IMG/VR virus record: IMGVR_UViG_3300035703_000076
Location: 4,947 to 68,946 of that record
Direction: 5' to 3' (one strand)
Origin: a virus
Length of the DNA: 64,000 nt
The notes below the pieces were generated by a model. The model did not search any database. It was not told the DNA's origin and saw only the letters and a list, made by a program, of their open reading frames with translations. The stretch's first letter is position 1; every line of letters begins with the position of its first letter. Below are positions 484 through 64,000 of this stretch, in pieces. The position numbers and the translations under genes were made by a program.

Positions 484-570
484 TCATTGGTTCAATCCTT
501 CAAAAATTAATTCTTCGCCGGTCAAGGCGTGGTAAAGATTTCCAATCCTGAGTTCGTGTGCTTTTATCAT
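484..570 (-). pseudogene. internally collapsed remnant of an 'ELRIGN...NLYxALTGEEL' phage protein (28 aa)
   Basis: Hand translation MIKAHELRIGNLYHALTGEELIFEGLNQ*; N- and C-terminal motifs of a family recalled from Bacteroidota phages are joined directly. Confidence 0.55.
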
Positions 571-575
571 TGGTT

Positions 576-614
576 ATGTGGATAGTTAATGTGGATAGTT
601 AATGTGGATAGTTA
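576..614. repeat. 3 x 13-bp perfect tandem repeat ATGTGGATAGTTA
   Basis: Copies start at 576, 589 and 602. Confidence 0.95.
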
Positions 615-624
615 TGTTTGCTTA

Positions 625-674
625 ATTTTGTTGGATATGTGCAAGTTTATGGCACATGTCTGGTAGTTATAGGA
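625..674 (+). other. attI-like leader/recombination site of cassette array A
   Basis: 34/44 nt identical to 61424-61467, ending ATGTCTGGTAGTT; directly precedes the first cassette (GTT at 666). Confidence 0.7.
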
Positions 675-676
675 AA

Positions 677-850
677 TTAAAAAATTGAAGTGAGCCTTTT
701 CCAAAATGACTTCCATCTAAATTTAATTATCCTGTCACAAATCATACACCTATCAGTTGTGTAGTGTTCGGTATTTGTGTAAATAATGTTTCTAAAATCA
801 CCACAATCGTGTTTAGCGTGGGTGTATGCTTTGTCTTGTTCTTTATTCAT
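677..850 (-). CDS. cassette A1 gene, 57 aa, possible Zn-binding (HxC...CxxC)
   Basis: Hand translation MNKEQDKAYTHAKHDCGDF...DRCMICDR...KRLTSIF*; below the ORF-track size cut-off; fills cassette 1. Confidence 0.7.
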   Translation of the reverse strand: MNKEQDKAYTHAKHDCGDFRNIIYTNTEHYTTDRCMICDRIIKFRWKSFWKRLTSIF

Positions 851-869
851 CGTATCAATTTTTTAACTA

Positions 870-970
870 TCCTATAACAGCACCTAACAAAAATGGCTGC
901 ATAAGCATTGGTTTTCAATTCAGAAGTTCTTACAAGCAGCCACTTCTGTTAGCCGCAAAACGTTATGTGC
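870..970 (+). repeat. attC-like hairpin A1
   Basis: TCCTATAAC...TAACAAAAATGGCTGC / GCAGCCACTTCTGTTA...AAAAC-GTT. Confidence 0.85.
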
Positions 971-974
971 CATT

Positions 975-1256
975 TTAAGGCGACACGTAATAAGGGTTTG
1001 AAGCAATCTTTATGTAGCTTTTAGCATACAAATTGAATCTACTTCCATCAACCCAATAAACAGCATGTTGCGTGCTTAACATATTTACAGAATCGCATTC
1101 TATTTGTGCAGACGTAGTCCAGTTATCATCATCTGTTTTTGCTATTATGTAAGCACGTTTTGGTTTTGGTTCTAACTCACACGAAGAAAAAACGGCACAT
1201 AACAACAAACTTGCAAAAGCAAGGGTTAATCGGTTAATTGAAAATTTGTAATTCAT
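975..1256 (-). CDS. cassette A2 gene, predicted lipoprotein (93 aa)
   Basis: Hydrophobic N-terminus ending FSSC (lipobox-like); start codon lies inside hairpin A2. Confidence 0.75.
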   Translation of the reverse strand: MNYKFSINRLTLAFASLLLCAVFSSCELEPKPKRAYIIAKTDDDNWTTSAQIECDSVNMLSTQHAVYWVDGSRFNLYAKSYIKIASNPYYVSP

Positions 1257-1329
1257 ATTACATTTGTTTTAAGTTGAAATTTTGTGCTTCTAAATACTTG
1301 CCTTCGCAAGTTTGCAAAACGTTAGTGGC
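1194..1329 (+). repeat. attC-like hairpin A2
   Basis: GGCACATAAC-A-ACAAACTTGCAAAAGCAAG / CTTGCCTTCGCAAGTTTGC-AAAAC-GTT. Confidence 0.85.
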
Positions 1330-1333
1330 AAGT

Positions 1334-1549
1334 TTAAAAACCGCACTTGACACATTTTATATCCTTTTTATCCATTGAAGTGAATCCAATTGGTAATTCT
1401 GGAACATCGCATATACATTTAGATTCTTCGTTGAATATTTTATAATCATTACAAATTTTCTGCAATTCGTCTTTCTCTATAAGAAAATCACCTGTAAATT
1501 GGTCAATTCTTAGTTCATATTTTTGGATTAATTTATCTATTAGTTTCAT
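1334..1549 (-). CDS. cassette A3 gene, 71 aa, C-terminal CxC...CxxC
   Basis: ORF fills cassette 3; Cys motifs. Confidence 0.7.
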   Translation of the reverse strand: MKLIDKLIQKYELRIDQFTGDFLIEKDELQKICNDYKIFNEESKCICDVPELPIGFTSMDKKDIKCVKCGF

Positions 1550-1579
1550 ATTTTAATTTATAAATGTTAATAAAAACCA

Positions 1580-1712
1580 GCCACTAACACTCGCTATAAG
1601 TAATGGCGGGTTCAGTGGTAATTGTTGTGTTGTGCTTTCTATTGTCATTTGTTGTATTTTGATAGTGAGTAGTTCCAATACCGCCACTACTCATAGCGGA
1701 AACGTTATAGGG
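1580..1712 (+). repeat. attC-like hairpin A3
   Basis: GCCACTAAC-ACT-CGCTATAAGTAATGGCGG / CCGCCACTACTCATAGCG-GAAAC-GTT. Confidence 0.85.
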
Positions 1713-1742
1713 CATTTAAACTGTTTGGCACATAATCTTAAA

Positions 1743-2332: not shown

Positions 2333-2665
2333 TTAAAGATTTATTATTTCTCCTGATTCTGTTTTGTAATTAAACTTAAATCCATCGTTTACGAAGTTTC
2401 GCACAAGCGATGGGCTTGAAAAAACCTTGCCATTTTTTATGCAATTTGAAATATCTTCAATGGTTGCTCGCCCAAACTCGTAACTGTTTCCATGTAAGGT
2501 GAAAGTATCGCTTTCTCGGTCAAGCGACCACCAACCGCCACCTTTTACGTTATTTTTGTTCGTAACAAGTTGTTTGTGATAGGTGCATTTCGCCAATATC
2601 AAACAATCCCCATGTTCTTCGTCAGTTTCGATAATAAATTTTGTAAAAACGTCCATTTTCTTCAA
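2333..2665 (-). CDS. hypothetical protein (start probably MDVFTK at 2656)
   Basis: ORF, operon packing. Confidence 0.7.
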   Translation of the reverse strand: MKKMDVFTKFIIETDEEHGDCLILAKCTYHKQLVTNKNNVKGGGWWSLDRESDTFTLHGNSYEFGRATIEDISNCIKNGKVFSSPSLVRNFVNDGFKFNYKTESGEIINL

Positions 2666-2920: not shown

Positions 2921-3838
2921 TTACTTCTCCTTCAATGGTTTAAACAAAAACTTCCTTGGTGTGGTCGAAGGAACTGAACATTCCTCAACGATTTCGGGGT
3001 AGGTTTCCTTCAATTTCTTGCTGTCTAATTTCGTTGTTTCTTCCCCTCCCTTCCAAGTGAACAATGGCTTTCCTTCTTTGCTTAAAATAACCTCATTTTC
3101 AAGCATCTTCATCTTGATAGTTTCCTCAATCGTTTCCTTCTCGCTTTCAAGCCTTGTCAATTCTTTTCGTACATTCCCAAGGGCTTTGTGTAGTTCAACG
3201 ATTCCATCATCCGCAACAATTGACTTGGCGTTGCTTTTCGGAAACATTTCAAGCACGTCCTCTGCGTTTTTCGGTTCGGGTGCAACATCAGTCAAAACGT
3301 GGTTGTGCCAAAAGTTCCTTGCCGATTCAAGTTGTTCCTCAAACAAATCTTCTTGGAACGTCCATTGCATACTTCCGATTGAACTACCACTTTTAAGGTA
3401 GAAAATGATTCCTGTTTTTAGGCCGCAAATGCCCAACTCCCAATTGATTTGCTCAATCCAATAAACGGGAATGTCATCAACCGATTCAATTCTTTGCTGG
3501 GTGTTTTTGAGGGAAATAATTACTTCCTCGTAATCCAATCGGGCAAAGGCATCAGGAACGGCAACAATACCGATTTCCTTGGTGAACATTTCCTTGTTAA
3601 GCCTTTCATGGGTTAATCGAACAACCCCGCCTTCTTGGTTGATTTTTTCAACCCCCATTTGAAGGATAAATGGTTCAATTTTGATTCCAATAAGTTGCTT
3701 TTCGGAAAGTTCACCTTTTGTGGCTTTGCCCGTTTTTTGTTGCCAGATTTGGAAGGGGGTAACGTAATCGTTAAACCCCCTGATTGCGGCAATGTCGGAA
3801 CCTCCAATGCCGTGTGCTTTGATGTTTGATTTTTCCAT
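2921..3838 (-). CDS. YqaJ-family (lambda exonuclease-like) recombination nuclease
   Basis: GIGGSDIAAI.G...Y.TP..IW..KTG N-terminal motif; PD..(S)LK core; YWIEQ. Confidence 0.85.
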   Translation of the reverse strand: MEKSNIKAHGIGGSDIAAIRGFNDYVTPFQIWQQKTGKATKGELSEKQLIGIKIEPFILQMGVEKINQEGGVVRLTHERLNKEMFTKEIGIVAVPDAFARLDYEEVIISLKNTQQRIESVDDIPVYWIEQINWELGICGLKTGIIFYLKSGSSIGSMQWTFQEDLFEEQLESARNFWHNHVLTDVAPEPKNAEDVLEMFPKSNAKSIVADDGIVELHKALGNVRKELTRLESEKETIEETIKMKMLENEVILSKEGKPLFTWKGGEETTKLDSKKLKETYPEIVEECSVPSTTPRKFLFKPLKEK

Positions 3839-4920: not shown

Positions 4921-5132
4921 TACGCAATTACGTTTTGATTGAAAACAACATGACTCCTGTCAAGTTCTGGATTGCCTCGCTCGTTTACTAAACAGGCTTC
5001 AAGTTCAAGTTTAATATCTTCAAGGTTTACAGGTTCAACTTTTCGGATATAAAATGTTTCTTTGTCGCCTTGGTTCGCAAGGTCGTAAAATATCTCTACT
5101 TGAAATGTTGCTAATGTTTTTAGGCTTTCCAT
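4920..5132 (-). CDS. hypothetical protein
   Basis: Stop overlaps the next gene's start. Confidence 0.65.
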   Translation of the reverse strand: MESLKTLATFQVEIFYDLANQGDKETFYIRKVEPVNLEDIKLELEACLVNERGNPELDRSHVVFNQNVIA

Positions 5133-8492: not shown

Positions 8493-9185
8493 TTAAAGTA
8501 AATTTTCTTGTTTGTAATAGTTTATTAGATACCACACATTTTGAGGTGTAAACTCCTTCCCATCGGTTGTTATGTAGCCGCTTCGTTTGTAGCCTAAGCG
8601 ATTAAGGTTGTAGCTAATTTCCTTTAGAAGATAGTCGGGGTTGGCGGCAATATACATTTTGATGTACTCGTATATCTGAACTTTGTTGTTATCCTCCCAT
8701 ACGGCTCTTTTCCTTGCTATTCCTCCATTAACTGCGGCTTCATAGCTTAGGTTTTCAGGTTTTCCAAGTTTCACTCCATTGGATTTCTTTACTTGCAATG
8801 CAGCCTTTGTTCGTTTGCTTATCAGTTCCCTTTCGTGCTGTGCCATCGTTGCGAAGATGCCAAGGGTTAGGGTGTTGAGGTCGGGCAAATCTAAACAAAC
8901 AAAGTTAACTGATTCCTTCAAAGTAAACAAAAAAGATACATTTCTACTTAGTCTGTCTAACTTAGCTATGAGCAAAGTTGCTTCTTTTTGTTTACATTCC
9001 TTTATAGCTTGTTCAAGTTGAGGTCGCTTGTCCTTCTTACCCGATTCAACTTCTGTAAACTCCTGCAATATACGGCCATTATTTTTGGCGTATAAGTTAA
9101 CAGCTTGCTTTTGTGCTTCCAAACCTAAGCCTGATTCGCCTTGTCGCTTTGTTGATACTCGGTAGTATGCAATGTAGGTTTTCAT
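8493..9185 (-). CDS. serine recombinase (resolvase/invertase family)
   Basis: YYRVST..Q, G.K..RP.L and KLDRLSRN catalytic motifs; ERELIS.RTK helix E. Confidence 0.92.
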   Translation of the reverse strand: MKTYIAYYRVSTKRQGESGLGLEAQKQAVNLYAKNNGRILQEFTEVESGKKDKRPQLEQAIKECKQKEATLLIAKLDRLSRNVSFLFTLKESVNFVCLDLPDLNTLTLGIFATMAQHERELISKRTKAALQVKKSNGVKLGKPENLSYEAAVNGGIARKRAVWEDNNKVQIYEYIKMYIAANPDYLLKEISYNLNRLGYKRSGYITTDGKEFTPQNVWYLINYYKQENLL

Positions 9186-47499: not shown

Positions 47500-50400
47500 A
47501 TGGCTTGCGAGGTCAAATACCAAGGGCAGACACTTTCTTTTGAAGAGTTTGCCGAAAAGTTGCATAATGGACTTTTGGACGAATTTATTGCCCAAGGTGT
47601 TGTTAAGAATGTACCAACCATAAAATCAATTCAAGATGCCGTACAAAAGCAAAGCGCAGAGGGCGTTCTTTCACGCCAACAAGGAGAAGCTGGAAAAGCA
47701 GGGGGTGAACGTCAAGGAATGGGACAAGGCAAGCAAGGGCAAGAAGCTGCCAAGCCGAGCAAAGAAGAAATAACTTCCGCAGAAGCAACGGTTGCTCTTG
47801 ATGAAGAAACCGAACTATTGCTTGAAGGACTTGCCGCAGAAAGGAGAAGGGCGGGCAAATATACAGTTGACGGAGTAACATATACAAGAAACGAAAAAGG
47901 ACAAGGCATTGTTTCGGAAGAAGGTGGGGATGTTAGGTTTACAAATGAACCTGGCGGTGGTGGCGTTGTCGTTCCTTTCAGATACAAACTTGTTGAAGCA
48001 AACACAGTTCAGCCTTCACACGAAGGAGGTTTGAGAAATCCAAACTTCTTTATACCCGAAGCGCAACCTAAAAATAGGAACGACCAAGCAAGTTTATTGG
48101 CGGAGGATGATTTTGCCAACAACCCAAGGTTTGGCGAGCTTGGACAAGATACAGGGGCGTATAAAGGTGCGCCCGTTGTAAACGAAAGGGGTGAAGTTAT
48201 TCAAGGAAACAACAGGGCTGCTGGACTTAAAAAGGGATATGCTGTTGGCAATAAAAAGTACAAGCAAGACTTAGCTGCAAATGCAGAGAAGTTTGGGTTT
48301 ACCAAAGAGCAAGTTGAAAGCATGGAAAACCCCGTGCTTGTTCGTGAAGTTATTGTAACTGATGAAAAAGCTATTGAACTTGGAAACTACGATGTAAAAG
48401 ACCTTGAAACCGCAGGAAAAAGAAGGATTGACCCTTCTGCCCTTGTTCGTAGGCTTCCTTCAAAAGTTAAAGCGAGCCTTGCTAAAGTTATTTCAGCAGG
48501 GGAAACGATTAAAGAATCTATTAAAGAAAATGCGGATGAGATTTATCAACTTATACGTCCGTATATCAATACAAGTATTGCCAACACTATAATCACAAAT
48601 GGCAAATTAAATTCTGTTGGTATTGAGGACGTTGAGGGCTTATTTACGCAGTTCTTGTTTCAGAATGGCGACCCTAACCTTCCTCAAATGTTTGAAGGTT
48701 TGTCTAATACGCAACGTGAGGGTATTAAAAAGTCTTTACCATACTTGCTAAGTGCAGGAGCAGGCAAAAGTATCATACCCGATGTTCAAGAAGCGATAAT
48801 TGCTATTTCCGATTTTATGGCAAGCGGTAGCTCTGATTTTAATGCTTGGCTTTCTCAAGGGGATATTTTTGTAGACAACAAAACGCCAAAAGATATTTAT
48901 TCTCCGCTTGCTTTAAAGATTGCAGAGATATTAAATACAGCCAAAACACAAGCCGATATAGTTGGAACTACTACAAGGTCAAAAACAGAACCAACATCTT
49001 TTGTTAAGTATAGCGAATTGACAAAAGGAACAGAAGCGGGTTTATTTGAGGAAGCTAAAGAGGGTATTTCAAAAAAAGAAGCAATAAAACAAGCATTTAA
49101 TGTAGATTACAATGAAAGAAAAACTTATTCAAATAGTCAAAGAATCGAAGAAAAGGCTTATAGAAAGCAAGAAGAAGAAAACTCAGTTAAGCAAAAATAT
49201 AAAGATGACCTTGCCAAAGGATTAGATAATTTAATTACTAAGCTCGGAGGAAAGAAAAATATAACACCAGAAGAAAGAACTTTTATAATAGAAGATTTAC
49301 GAAATATAATAAAAGGTCTTGTTGGGTTAACTTATGAGGAAATAAAAGAAATGGTTGTTCCTGCTTTGAAAAAGTTAGGATTAACTTCTCGTGAAGTTGA
49401 CGATATTTTAGTCGAAGCAACTACCGAAGAAAGAAGAAGGCCAGACTATTCAGAACCTTCTTTAGAAAGAGAAACTGAAACAAAGAAAAGTAGAACATTA
49501 GAAACGGTTGAAACTTTTTCTTCAAAAAGAATAGCGGAAAGAATTAAAAAACTTGAAAACTATTACTACAAAGTTCTTCCAAATGAAGAAGTTAAAGCTG
49601 CCGTAAATAAGATTTTTGAACTTTATTCTGTCGAAGAAATCGCTGACGATTTCCTTAACCCTGATGTAAATTCAAAAATGTATGGGCCTGTAAAAACGGT
49701 AATAGGTCTTGAACTTATGAAACGATTCAGTAAGGAAAAGAACTATGAAATGTTTAACAAGGTCGCAAATGAATATGCAGAAATAGCAAAAGAAGGGGCA
49801 AGAACAATTCAAATTATAAACATATTTGATATTGTAAAATCAATGGGAGGGATATTTGCTAAATTAAAAGCAAAGGAAATTATACAAGAAAGAAACCAAA
49901 GATTGCGCGATTTGAACAAACAGAAGATGGAGCAAATTGCTATGCAACTTAAAAATGCAAATACGCAAGCAATAGATGAGGCATTAGGCGATGAAAAGAT
50001 AAGGGAAATAGTTGGCAAGATTTTACAAAAATATGCGCCCCAAACAACAACAACTGATGAAAAACAAAAAGAGGCGAGTAAAGCAAAATCAAAAACAAAT
50101 CTTAATGAAGGTAGGATAAAAGAGCTTATTGATAAAAAGAAATTATTAAAAGAAAAAATAAAAAAAGGCGGCTATTTTACAAGCGGAGGAATTACGCCAG
50201 AGCTATTCGAGCTTGCTGCTACAAATATCGAATTAGGTACAAGAACATTTGCTGAATTTTCAAAGCAAATGACAAAGGATGTTGGTAAGGCTATTAAACC
50301 ATATTTACTTGAATTATACAAAGAAGGCAAGTCTATATTAAAAAATCAAGGACAAGACGTTTCTGATACAACAAGTAATGTTGACGCATCTTCTGAATTT

Positions 50401-61423: not shown

Positions 61424-61474
61424 ATTTTGTTAGGTATGTGCCATAAAGTGGCTTATGTCTGGTAGTTACCTGCC
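61424..61474 (+). other. attI-like leader/recombination site of cassette array B
   Basis: 34/44 nt identical to 625-668; GTT at 61465. Confidence 0.7.
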
Positions 61475-61738
61475 ATTTTCCCAACGACCGATAACCCAAT
61501 CAGGAACAATTCCATCATTAGTTCTATTGGCTAAATCTTCATCCCAACTGAAATTCACGACTATCTTTTCATCTGAACTCCAATCCCTACCAAAATCTTC
61601 AATAGTCAATTCAGCATCGTATTTCGCCAATAATGCTTTTAACTCGTTTTGGAATTGTTCTACCTTATCCTTACCCGACAAAAAAACGGCAGGTAACACG
61701 GGTTTGGCAAAATTGCCGTTTTGTTCTTCTATTAACAT
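61466..61738 (-). CDS. cassette B1 gene (90 aa)
   Basis: Starts in the hairpin loop; its stop TAA coincides with the GTTA core. Confidence 0.75.
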   Translation of the reverse strand: MLIEEQNGNFAKPVLPAVFLSGKDKVEQFQNELKALLAKYDAELTIEDFGRDWSSDEKIVVNFSWDEDLANRTNDGIVPDWVIGRWENGR

Positions 61739-61819
61739 CAGTTCTTAATTTTAAACATTTGTACTTCTATTTAGCTTTTCGGTTCGGCAACTTCGCCAAA
61801 CCCGATACCGTTAGGCACA
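61688..61819 (+). repeat. attC-like hairpin B1
   Basis: GGCAGGTAAC-A-CGGGTTTGGCAAAATTGCCG / CGGCAACTTCGCCAAACCCG-ATACC-GTT. Confidence 0.85.
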
Positions 61820-62083
61820 ATTAAGCAACATACCTTCGAGTTCAGAAATAACCACAATCCATTGCTCACTTTCAATGTTCATTGCTTCATCCATTTGTCC
61901 TTTATCTGCAAAATCTTTACACAAATTAGCTAAATCAATCGCTGCGATTAAATTGTCTTTATTTGATAACATCCCTGTGTATGGGTTGTGGTCTGATGAT
62001 TTCAACATCAATTCTACTATTTCTTTCGTTTTCATAATTTTAACTGTGCCTAACAGCGTATATGTGCAATACGCTTTCAGCAT
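61811..62083 (-). CDS. cassette B2 gene (90 aa; alternative start 62035)
   Basis: Its stop TAA coincides with the GTTA core. Confidence 0.75.
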   Translation of the reverse strand: MLKAYCTYTLLGTVKIMKTKEIVELMLKSSDHNPYTGMLSNKDNLIAAIDLANLCKDFADKGQMDEAMNIESEQWIVVISELEGMLLNCA

Positions 62084-62143
62084 TTGTTGTTAATAATTAA
62101 GTTTATCGTATGCGTACTGCACATATACGCAAACCCGTTACCT
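62045..62143 (+). repeat. attC-like hairpin B2
   Basis: TGTGCCTAAC-A-GCGTATATGTGCAATACGC / GCGTACTGCACATATACGC-AAACCC-GTT. Confidence 0.85.
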
Positions 62144-62386
62144 AATCTTCACCATCACCCTATCCCCTACTTGCCTTACAAACTGCCCTTTGATGATAAG
62201 GACTGAATCTTTTCCGACCTTACCGAAGTTGTAGCCGATTTGGATTTGATGGTTAATGATTGGCTTTGACTGCGAGTGGTTCTTGGTGGGAAGAGTTCCT
62301 ATCCATAGCAAAATCAAACAGGCAATTGCAATGTAAATGCCTAACAAAAGTTTATAAGAACTATCCATCCTACACCTCCTTTTCAA
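62138..62386 (-). CDS. small membrane-anchored protein (start probably MDSS)
   Basis: N-terminal TM. Confidence 0.65.
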   Translation of the reverse strand: MKRRCRMDSSYKLLLGIYIAIACLILLWIGTLPTKNHSQSKPIINHQIQIGYNFGKVGKDSVLIIKGQFVRQVGDRVMVKIR

Positions 62387-63201: not shown

Positions 63202-64000
63202 CTAAATATTAAAGAATTTACAAAATTCAACGTTACCATATTGGCTCTTGGTTTTTTCGGCCATTTCCAAAATAGTGAACTTTTGTGGCTTAATTCCAGC
63301 CGATTCGATAAACGATTTTACGCCTTGCTGACAAGCGCCTGTAATCACTCGGTAAACCTCAATACATTTATCGTAGGGCAGTTTTTCGTTTACGTCCATG
63401 CCTTTAAAATCGTCCTTATTCCTTTCAGCAATTTTGTAAATCAAATCCGCCTTAGCATCCTTAATTGTGTCTCCATGTGCATATTTGCCGTTTCCATCAG
63501 TTACAAGAAAATACTCGTTTTTTTTGCCAACGTCTTTAAGTCTCCAAACATTACCTTTTTTCGATATTACCTCCGAAAATTTACCATCGGCCAAGACAAA
63601 ATCGCCATTTCCTTTGCCCCATTTCATAAATGGGATATTTTGATTTTGTAAAATTGGCAATTGTGCTTTTACTTTATCAGGTAGCGTGCAGCCTCTGAGG
63701 TAGAGAGAGCCGCCGATAGTAGTAGGTAGTACCAAGTTATCAGGTAGCGTGCAGTCTTCGAGGTAGAGATGGCCGCCGATAGTAGTAGGTAGTACCAAGT
63801 TATCAGGTAGCGTGCAGTCTTCGAGGTAGAGATAGCCGCCGATAGTAGTAGGTAGTACCAAGTTATCAGGTAGCGTGCAGCCTCTGAGGTAGAGAGAGCC
63901 GCCGATAGTAGTAGGTAGTACCAAGTTATCAGGTAGCGTGCAGCCTCTGAGGTAGAGATAGCCGCCGATAGTAGTAGGTAGTACCAAGTTATCAGGTAGC
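63202..64000 (-). CDS. LRR-like repeat protein (5' end outside the window)
   Basis: 21-aa repeats LPDNLVLPTTIGGxLYLxxCT; C-terminal AHG.T...A..DL..K / YR.ITGAC..G...F domain. Confidence 0.85.
   Translation of the reverse strand, partial: LPDNLVLPTTIGGYLYLRGCTLPDNLVLPTTIGGSLYLRGCTLPDNLVLPTTIGGYLYLEDCTLPDNLVLPTTIGGHLYLEDCTLPDNLVLPTTIGGSLYLRGCTLPDKVKAQLPILQNQNIPFMKWGKGNGDFVLADGKFSEVISKKGNVWRLKDVGKKNEYFLVTDGNGKYAHGDTIKDAKADLIYKIAERNKDDFKGMDVNEKLPYDKCIEVYRVITGACQQGVKSFIESAGIKPQKFTILEMAEKTKSQYGNVEFCKFFNI
63674..64000. repeat. 63-bp tandem repeat, at least 5 copies
   Basis: Units start at 63674, 63737, 63800, 63863, 63926 and 63989. Confidence 0.95.

Follow-up and report, generated by a model that had tools for sequence, protein, structure and literature searches.

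Two arrays of single-gene units in a phage genome

The window analysed here is a 64,000-nt stretch (positions 4,947 to 68,946) of the IMG/VR virus record IMGVR_UViG_3300035703_000076, a complete phage genome of 68,946 bp whose host is probably a member of the Bacteroidota. It comprises two arrays, A with three cassettes and B with two, in which each unit holds one small minus-strand gene, a hairpin site and a pair of inverted words (Table 1). For array A, the coordinates and words given in an earlier note on this DNA all proved correct on recheck, and so did the lengths of its three one-gene units (296, 359 and 383 nt). The gene-flanking inverted repeats were also present, but they stretch further than that note had given, i.e. 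666-684/860-878 (19 nt, 84%), 962-976/1189-1203 (15 nt, 93%) and 1321-1335/1574-1588 (15 nt, 87%); the hairpin arms 884-900/936-952 and 1206-1223/1297-1314 were detected as inverted repeats as well.

Table 1. Features of arrays A and B and of two further genes, in window coordinates
Feature	Position	Strand	Details
Flanking DNA	569..614	.	three tandem 13-nt units ending ATAGTTA; also in a relative without array A
Array A leader	616..665	.	short palindrome ~636-660; ends CTGGTA before first GTT
Cassette 1	666..961	-	words 666-674 / 870-878 (reverse complement)
Cassette 1 gene	677..850	-	57 aa, Cys-rich, no family
Site 1	876-964		AAC 876-878; stem ~880-902/934-956; spacer 957-961
Cassette 2	962..1320	-	words 962-971 / 1194-1203
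Cassette 2 gene	975..1256	-	93 aa, lipoprotein-type signal peptide
Site 2	1201-1323		AAC 1201-1203; stem 1206-1229/1291-1314; spacer 1315-1320
Cassette 3	1321..1703	-	words 1321-1329 / 1580-1588
Cassette 3 gene	1334..1549	-	71 aa
Site 3	1586-1706		AAC 1586-1588; stem 1592-1615/1675-1698; spacer 1699-1703; member of conserved ~105-nt element
Array A right-end remnant	1704..1741	.	first 14 nt identical to those of a full cassette of relative G004; without matching AAC end
Putative YqaJ-like exonuclease gene	2921..3838		called by sequence motifs
Small serine recombinase gene	8493..9185	-	PF00239
Array B leader	61424..61464	.	conserved in relative G004; ends CTGGTA before first GTT
Cassette B1	61465..61809	-	words 61465-61474 / 61689-61698
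Cassette B1 gene	61466..61738	-	90 aa; start in loop; stop = TAA within TAAC
Site B1	61695-61812		AAC 61695-61697; stem 61699-61718/61785-61804; spacer 61805-61809
Cassette B2	61810..62136	-	words 61810-61819 / 62046-62055
Cassette B2 gene	61811..62083	-	90 aa; start in loop
Site B2	62052-62139		AAC 62052-62054; stem 62056-62078/62108-62130; spacer 62131-62136
Array B right border	62137..62386	-	GTT at 62137, then conserved gene 62138..62386, stop codon in GTTA/TAAC core

No function was assigned to the cassette genes: a search with 10 proteins, the five cassette products and five neighbours, found no Pfam family at cut-off and no PHROG, the B1 protein matched nothing but viral hypothetical clusters in the Atlas, and the cassette 2 gene had no relative among viral_contigs with the query used. 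The start codon of the cassette 2 gene lies in the loop of site 2, and the ORF crosses the arm and the word 1194-1203. At site 3, a 31-aa ORF begins at the loop ATG (1648); it is in frame with gene 3 and terminates a single codon upstream of that gene's ATG. A contig from an RNA library spans 762-912 and, as an assembled contig, is uninformative on transcription.

AAC-hairpin-GTT sites between the cassettes

The whole genome was scanned with a detector that required, in this order, AAC, a gap of 0-7 nt, a stem with 11 or more Watson-Crick pairs, a loop, a second gap of 0-10 nt and GTT; it recovered exactly the five strong hairpins and one weak match at 48882-49005. Ten mononucleotide shuffles yielded 0, 1, 0, 0, 0, 0, 0, 1, 0 and 0 matches (∼0.2 per shuffled genome), and together with the wrong-side controls given below they rule out a chance origin of the sites. 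Other identities were rejected as well: a tRNA search returned none, Rfam gave no family at the gathering threshold, its two microRNA matches (E 0.58 and 0.77) being at chance level, and a Y1 HUH transposase of the IS200/IS605 type was not found in the genome (PF01797, E ≤1).

The stems are imperfect and 17-24 bp long, with a spacer of 5-6 nt before GTT, and the span from AAC to GTT is 88-123 nt in all five sites, within the ∼57-141 nt of an attC, an imperfect inverted repeat with AAC as R″ and GTT as R′. Recomputation at the sites reproduced the reported spacer asymmetry, with 1-3 nt on one side against 5-6 nt on the other. As had been remarked, the cores are not strict GTTRRRY; among the seven R′ boxes read from the sequence (666, 962, 1321, 1704, 61465, 61810 and 62137) only that at 61810 fits, and the sites here depart from the RYYYAAC/GTTRRRY boxes of classical integrons. 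The arms had been called unrelated between units, and their sequences do differ, but every stem has mid-stem A·C pairs, with AAAA facing a CTTC-type sequence. A minus-strand ORF starts from an ATG, set in A-rich sequence, within each of the five loops.

Beyond the window, sites of this type also occur in numerous other phages and in chromosomal arrays of Bacteroidota. Hairpin 3 is a copy of a conserved ∼105-nt element with 56 copies in 52 IMG/VR stretches, which heads unrelated genes, many with a DNA-methylase motif, and retains a mean identity of 84% even across unrelated contexts. The arms covary among 57 distinct elements (CG 48, GC 4, AT 3; and GC 49, TA 6).

Cassette ends are paired gene by gene

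In integrons, crossover takes place at G|TT and the start of a cassette can pair with R″ of the attC that belongs to it; the same own-end complementarity was found in all five window cassettes, where the crossover can be resolved only to within GTTA. The claim that each unit has its own word, recurring as the exact reverse complement at the far end of that unit, thus holds for the five cassettes and extends to the family of the conserved element: among 50 non-duplicate cases, the 10-mer before AAC was the exact reverse complement of the far end of the gene in 34 and had one mismatch in 13. In the controls, the wrong side matched exactly in 1/45 and shuffled flanks in 0/50, and the words across a single hairpin mostly differed at 3-5 of 10 positions.

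The folding strand is the same whatever the gene orientation

The single strands are not equivalent. The stem mismatches on the plus strand of the five window sites comprise 12 A·C versus 1 G·T, and as single-stranded DNA the full hairpin forms on the minus strand in 5/5 sites and on the plus strand in 3/5. Extrahelical bases had been described as not obvious, and the pairings indeed contain no single-base bulges; the asymmetric spacer and the A·C/G·T bias both point to the minus strand. When 108 distinct sites from 194 viral loci, many of them found via two hairpin families and hence not independent, were oriented by spacer asymmetry alone, A·C exceeded G·T in 88 and the reverse was found in 10.

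In the window the cassette genes run antisense to the attI-to-attC direction, a backwards orientation already recognized from the sequence. The wobble pairs of the phage sites lie on the gene-sense strand, which would suit an alternative in which G·U-containing stems of the mRNA enclose the start codon and bracket the cistrons for processing, stability or translational control, the location of the stems at exchange points being secondary. The ATG in an A-rich context in 5/5 loops fits this too, as does an ORF of at least 30 aa opened by the loop ATG beyond the site in 56/58 family members. In a Bacteroidales chromosomal array, however, the cassette genes lie on the plus strand and the sites still have A·C on plus (17 versus 3), so that the folding strand is antisense to the genes. 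As the folding strand stays the same despite the opposite gene orientation, the fold acts as DNA rather than as mRNA. Furthermore, the element arm is translated in two frames (23/58 and 35/58 members), so its conservation is not at the peptide level, and the mRNA alternative, for which Rfam offered no match at the gathering threshold, leaves the homology breaks at the hairpin feet and the adjacent recombinases described below unexplained. We regard it as quite improbable.

Cassettes are exchanged at the sites

Comparison with relatives revealed that the sites mark exchange points of cassettes. In the relative G004 (97%/91% identical), the GTT borders of array B enclose three cassettes that differ from those of the window, with homology resuming at 62138, and the array of G005 holds further different ones. 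The prediction that related phages would differ at G|TT was borne out for the cassette content between the GTT sites of array B but not for the whole-array indel of array A, which breaks elsewhere. Array A was inserted directly after the last GTTA of the 13-nt repeats, its insert ends at ∼1741 and includes the leader, and it is absent as a whole from L181 and an X2 contig, where the joint 613→1742 has only 2 nt in common and is not G|TT.

The same genes with their own hairpins were also found in other contexts, as had been anticipated. B1 with its own hairpin occurs in the unrelated viral contig L226, where the DNA on either side diverges beyond GTTA, and its left break is at GTT in 5/8 contigs; cassette 2 occurs in contigs of the lake metagenome X4, with breaks at 962 and 1324. 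A first search of the phages collection returned LR756502 as the only match. Breaks also occur on the AAC side, such that the B1 body is joined to another hairpin in 4/8 contigs, gene 3 in X4 matches the window exactly as far as 1590 and is unlike it beyond, and identical hairpins head different genes; hairpins and gene bodies therefore reassort. With exchange seen at the sites and a geometry that recurs far beyond chance, the proposal that the phage captures and shuffles accessory genes as discrete cassettes is supported.

Such exchange might need no site-specific enzyme if the hairpins were portable regulatory or leader modules, resembling promoter-early stem-loops (PeSLs), and the genes were shuffled by homologous or short-homology recombination within hairpins and words through a phage exonuclease and annealing protein. 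The 84% identity of the ∼105-nt element suffices for annealing-based exchange, breaks fall on both hairpin sides, the putative YqaJ-like exonuclease gene of the phage is followed by a gene that may encode its partner, and PeSL recombination with mini-circles is documented in the available text of PMC2839356; in addition, a tyrosine recombinase was not found in this lineage. Against this, cassettes with unrelated hairpins are swapped where only GTTA is common, the gene-specific complementarity of the cassette ends is left unexplained, the one-strand bias and the spacer asymmetry persist whatever the gene orientation, and tyrosine recombinases directly adjoin such arrays elsewhere. Recombination by homology alone is therefore an unlikely account.

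Recombinases in the phage and beside similar arrays

That the window lacks a tyrosine recombinase was extended to the whole genome (PF00589, no match at E ≤1), and none was found with PF00589 in three relatives either, though their cassette content differs; neither array adjoins an IntI with the catalytic-domain insertion, as a classical integron would. The only site-specific recombinase found in the genome is a small serine recombinase (PF00239, E 2.3e-31), which is 98-99% conserved in G004 and G005 whose arrays differ in content, and it could be imagined to move or invert the cassettes via the inverted words. However, a search of 203 viral loci gave hits only in G000, L182 and L183, so that it was not found near arrays in the other loci, and it was likewise missing from the four bacterial array loci. 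Serine recombinases require conserved double-stranded half-sites, whereas the words vary between cassettes and the strand bias points to a single-stranded substrate, which makes this enzyme a very improbable agent.

A search for an associated recombinase, as the earlier note had suggested, showed that tyrosine recombinases adjoin such arrays in the phages L143, L146 and L152 and on the Bacteroidales chromosome G001. The three phage enzymes (267-277 aa) lie directly beside the arrays in an intI-like geometry, and the G001 enzyme (539 aa) lies ∼0.8 kb before at least 8 co-oriented sites over ∼26 kb, the second of which is a copy of the hairpin-3 element. Where 1 kb or more of sequence was available downstream of a recombinase homologue, a site was found in only 4/17 loci, and a relaxed site scan downstream of 8 of the others found none. 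The closest solved relative of the array-associated recombinase is the Vibrio integron integrase 2a3v; the array-associated enzyme scored 211.5 bits against TIGR02249, under the cut-off of 265 and in two stretches, and only 24 residues are counterparts of 2a3v residues 178-244. By sequence comparison, the enzyme is IntI/Xer-like and lacks the IntI insertion.

A model for cassette movement

We consider it likely that arrays A and B are integron-like cassette arrays served by an insertion-less IntI/Xer tyrosine recombinase that is supplied in trans and acts at folded sites. On the plus strand, a cassette runs from TT(A) plus the word through one minus-strand gene, the reverse-complement word plus TAAC, the hairpin and the spacer to G. 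In the excised circle the two words would pair, completing an extended folded site that comprises an R box and an L box, with the minus strand as the folding strand. A tyrosine recombinase of the IntI/Xer group without the extra domain of IntI, coming from the host or from another phage in the same cell, would cleave the folded site at its foot, either at G|TT or right beside it, and cassettes would be excised, inserted or replaced. The genes are backwards relative to classical cassettes, with the site loop supplying the translation start and the ORF often crossing arm and word. Of this model, the geometry and its recurrence, the strand that folds, the exchange of cassettes at the sites and the adjacency of recombinases elsewhere are observed, whereas we infer which enzyme acts, that the intermediate is single-stranded and where exactly the cut falls.

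A broader version is that the integron principle has a second branch, without the insertion, common to Bacteroidota and their phages. Its folded site would also serve as a mobile translation start and N-terminal exon, recombination at one or the other hairpin foot would move whole promoterless genes and fuse hairpins that carry a start codon with gene bodies in either of two frames, so that new proteins arise, and enzyme-less phages would borrow the host enzyme during infection; we offer it tentatively, as a possibility that we rather doubt.

Comparison with known systems

The arrays resemble integrons and CALINs (integrase-less attC clusters, some of them reported in phages) in their co-oriented single-gene units with imperfect AAC...GTT hairpins of ∼90-125 nt between, their complementary unit ends, one strand that folds better and, as far as the available text on phage CALINs goes, DNA methylases as common cargo; the nearest solved relative of the array-associated recombinase is, moreover, an integron integrase. 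They differ in that the phage has no integrase and the recombinase found elsewhere lacks the IntI-specific insertion, the R boxes are seldom GTTRRRY, the spacer is asymmetric and bulged single bases were not seen, the genes are backwards, start inside the site loop and are often translated through the arm, and exchange on the AAC side also brings hairpins and gene bodies into new combinations. The arrays work in an integron-like way, while membership among integrons is unproven. With 3 + 2 sites and no integrase they have the geometry of CALINs (at least two sites, no integrase nearby), the sites being called here by geometry whereas the CALIN definition rests on an attC model. In the available text of Qi et al. 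(2023, PMC9892861), 17 phage CALINs are reported with DNA methylases noted as cargo, and IntI1 is shown to recombine attI1 with an attC from P12002L, a virulent Polaribacter phage. P12002L has the same word/hairpin design beside its methylase genes, and the site of the printed assay may differ from those seen here.

The rAID-1 arrays (recombinase-associated acquired interbacterial defence) of Bacteroidales are described, in the portions available of Ross et al. (2019, bioRxiv 10.1101/471110; PMC12247911), as an XerD-like tyrosine recombinase with a run of short genes in the same direction behind it; the intergenic sequences are repetitive and reminded the authors of integrons. By layout, the G001 array resembles these arrays, for which there is also a published threshold of recombinase identity to the B. 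fragilis reference. Those portions deal with chromosomes and immunity genes rather than phages and describe no hairpin, AAC/GTT cores or paired cassette ends, and the window is from a phage without such a recombinase.

In T4-type phages, PeSLs are small modules that separate the accessory ORFan genes of hyperplastic regions (Arbiol et al. 2010, PMC2839356, available text), and genes are likewise gained, lost and replaced at these stem-loops. According to the same text they share one promoter-plus-terminator sequence and recombine by homology, whereas the window hairpins have five different sequences, surround start codons instead of acting as terminators, and have AAC/GTT cores with cassette-specific paired ends. 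Our literature search found no description of the backwards, start-in-loop design or of its phage spread, the nearest being Qi et al. and the rAID papers.

If true, the model provides a testable mechanism by which virulent Bacteroidota phages gain and swap small accessory genes, with counter-defence as a likely use because methylases are prominent among the cargo, and connects this pool of phage genes with the host's chromosomal arrays headed by a recombinase. It would also extend integron-type recombination to a recombinase without the domain thought essential for reading a folded attC, and to recombination sites that carry coding and translation signals.

Leaders and array ends

The leaders of arrays A and B are similar to each other. 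A leader serving as a general attI was rejected by a pattern scan, which found the leader only in the relative G004 and in one chance match within a coding region; the leader is therefore lineage-specific. Separately, an (A/G)TAGTTA junction was noticed beside the recombinases in L152 and L143 and at the array ends in the window, an impression from four sequences.

Integron-like cassette arrays in the phage genome

The source viral record is complete (68,946 bp with direct terminal repeats, of which the window covers bases 4947-68946). By re-reading the sequence and a repeat search, all the elements listed for 625-1712 in the earlier note were found present, with the gene-bracketing inverted repeats of array A carrying GTTA at their start and TAAC at their end and long imperfect hairpins standing between the genes. 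A purpose-written architecture detector identified five sites, i.e. AAC-hairpin-GTT unit ends, in the whole genome, three in array A and two in array B (61695-62139), versus 0 or 1 match per genome in ten shuffled genomes. The observation in the earlier note, including the paired words (cassette-end sequences recurring as reverse complements at their own far ends), was confirmed. Each cassette-gene stop either coincides with the TAA of TAAC or precedes it by 12 nt in the same frame, so that the TAAC core supplies a back-up stop codon. A sixth, weak match (48882-49005, score 9.1) lies within the structural region and is probably due to chance.

Cassette genes and stop/core regions (window numbering)
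Feature	Position	Strand	Remark
Cassette gene 1	677..850	minus	inverted repeat around gene, 19 nt, 84%
Cassette gene 2	975..1256	minus	inverted repeat around gene, 15 nt, 93%
Cassette gene 3	1334..1549	minus	inverted repeat around gene, 15 nt, 87%
Cassette-gene stop/core regions	964-977, 1322-1336, 61466-61468, 61811-61813, 62138-62140		stops vs TAAC core

The sites are exchange points for cassettes

In the related phage G004, array B is flanked by DNA of 97% and 91% identity to the window. The leader is shared up to GTTA, after which come three other cassettes, each having paired words of its own; homology restarts at 62138, immediately behind the G of GTT. The cassettes at this locus are different again in the related phage G005. 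Cassette B1 is present in eight other viral contigs, with its left break at GTT in five and 7 nt further inward in three, and in four of the eight the gene body is joined to a different hairpin after AAC. In one unrelated viral contig, L226, B1 is complete and retains its own hairpin; the DNA around it is unrelated, and GTTA is the break on both sides. In more than 25 additional contigs nothing but the B1-type leader (about residues 1-18) is present, attached to other genes. In contigs of an independent lake metagenome run (X4), cassette 2 is bordered by dissimilar DNA beyond 962 and beyond 1324, and gene 3 is identical over 1326-1590 and dissimilar after 1590. The sites are thus exchange points for cassettes, and the earlier reading of the units as cassettes by their geometry is supported by these cassette-level breaks at GTT/GTTA in G004, L226 and X4.

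A conserved hairpin family linked to its genes

For site 3 (1586-1706), a match of 78% identity was found in an uncultured phage of 642 kb (LR756502.1); at about 580.3 kb this phage carries the same element with the paired-word design around a 72-aa gene. A gapped pattern made from the two arms of site 3 retrieved 56 copies in 52 IMG/VR stretches, plus 10 stretches in genome contigs, and 58 copies, those of the window and of the large phage included, were tallied. AAC was found at the left foot in 54 of the 58; at the right foot, 52 had GTT no more than 12 nt away. From the loop ATG, a minus-strand ORF extended at least 30 aa beyond the site into a gene in 56/58, the remaining two being the window's own copy (the sole exception) and one with a flank too short to judge. 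The attached genes vary, with a DPPY-type methylase motif in 28/58. Since the arm is translated in two frames (23 versus 35 copies), conservation resides in the nucleotides, and the free positions at both arm ends covary (CG 48, GC 4, AT 3; GC 49, TA 6).

The 10-mer ending in AAC was mirrored by its reverse complement at the distal end of the gene attached to it, at a distance of 89-1128 nt and directly after a spacer and GTT, exactly in 34 and with one mismatch in 13 of 50 non-duplicate cases, versus exact matches in 1/45 on the wrong side and 0/50 in shuffled flanks. Mean hairpin identity was 0.90 for 36 pairs with the same gene and a different neighbour versus 0.84 for unrelated pairs; by this pairwise comparison a hairpin usually stays with its gene, although four pairs had near-identical hairpins on different genes.

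The common denominator of the sites is a DNA strand

All five phage sites share a spacer asymmetry (1-3 nt after AAC versus 5-6 nt before GTT), and their plus strand carries 12 A.C versus one G.T mismatches. Folded as ssDNA, the minus strand formed the full hairpin with a TAAC/GTTA base at 5/5 sites and the plus strand at 3/5. In site 3, an 8-bp local hairpin (1666-1693) competes with the long-range arm pairing, and the plus strand folds preferentially into it. A role in mRNA is conceivable, because the phage sites have wobble pairs on the sense strand and start codons in the loops. A chromosomal array in the Bacteroidales genome G001 speaks against it. There, a contig of 266 kb carries eight or more co-oriented sites with chained words across about 26 kb, and the cassette genes are mostly on the plus strand in the order gene then site, yet the sites are still A.C on plus (17 versus 3) with the same spacer asymmetry as in the phage, so the folding strand is antisense to the genes there. 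Among 108 distinct sites from 194 viral loci, oriented by spacer asymmetry alone, A.C exceeded G.T in 88 and the reverse held in 10, with a backwards start-in-loop gene at 65 of these sites and the classical layout at 8. The common denominator of the sites is a DNA strand.

Recombinases associated with the arrays

The earlier statement that the window encodes no tyrosine recombinase holds, and for the entire phage genome; none was found in the related phages G004, G005 and G006 either. A small serine recombinase (8493..9185, minus strand, 230 aa; PF00239, E 2.3e-31) is 98-99% identical in G004 and G005; near arrays at other loci it was not found. In G001, the first site is preceded, at a distance of about 0.8 kb, by the end of a gene for a 539-aa tyrosine recombinase. 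Among protein families, the integron-integrase model matches this enzyme best, in two stretches and under the cut-off, and among solved structures its best relative is the integron integrase of Vibrio; 67 residues of the Vibrio enzyme are represented by 24 here, therefore the IntI-specific insertion is missing. Just upstream of the recombinase gene (L171, G001 contig C59, 1545-3645), a LexA-like repressor (HTH and S24 peptidase) and a DinB-type polymerase are encoded, an arrangement suggestive of SOS control like that of classical integrons.

Of 81 genomes sampled from the order, 35 contain homologues of this recombinase (E ≤ 1e-40). Downstream, the test covered the 17 loci that have 1 kb or more of sequence on that side, and in 4 of them a co-oriented site lay within 1.5 kb; upstream, 27 loci gave one borderline match, and a relaxed site scan at eight other homologue loci gave none. 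Homologues are also encoded in 4 of 203 viral loci, three of which (L143, L146 and L152) have recombinases of 267-277 aa directly adjoining arrays, with genes opposite in strand to the site orientation, the same orientation as that of intI in integrons.

Relationship to known systems

Qi et al. 2023 (PMC9892861) describe 17 phage attC clusters without an integrase, among them one that accompanies methylase genes in P12002L, a virulent phage of Polaribacter; one of the P12002L sites, as bottom strand, recombined with attI1 under IntI1. We found the same word/hairpin design beside the methylases in the P12002L genome; the published tested site may or may not be among these. Bacteroidales rAID-1 arrays have a XerD-like recombinase and integron-like intergenic repeats, and hairpins and phages are not mentioned in the available portions of Ross et al. 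(bioRxiv 10.1101/471110) and the 2025 follow-up (PMC12247911). Shuffling at PeSLs (promoter-early stem-loops) is driven by homology, according to Arbiol et al. 2010 (PMC2839356). Our literature search found no description of backwards cassettes with the start inside the site. The evidence supports an integron-like cassette system that acts through a folded DNA strand, here without its enzyme. On testing, the system failed to show two defining features of classical integrons, the IntI insertion and a strict core consensus, and it is therefore classed as a new variant functioning like an integron, not as an integron member.

Other gene turnover near the arrays

Some results fit poorly. Array A including its leader is absent as one block from the relative L181 and from a contig of another sequencing run (X2), and the joint (613->1742), with 2 nt shared, falls immediately behind a tandem-repeat GTT(A) and not at G|TT. 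The leader common to arrays A and B was found elsewhere only in G004 by pattern scan. The repeat comprises three tandem 13-nt units (569-614), each ending (A)TAGTTA, which are kept in the relative lacking array A; the array follows the last GTTA directly, and TAGTTA junctions of a similar kind adjoin the recombinase genes of L152 and L143. Compared with window 522-537, L181 has 339 nt extra with a longer minus-strand gene, the window retaining only a short ORF starting at 571. A 110-aa gene (2333..2665) is missing in L181 as a single-gene indel (2343-2683) whose ends carry no AAC/GTT hairpin, so some of the gene turnover here proceeds without the sites. The minus strand of 63202-63999 encodes a protein in which a unit of about 21 aa (LPDNLVLPTTIGG.LYL...CT) occurs in five or more tandem copies; this protein extends past the window end.
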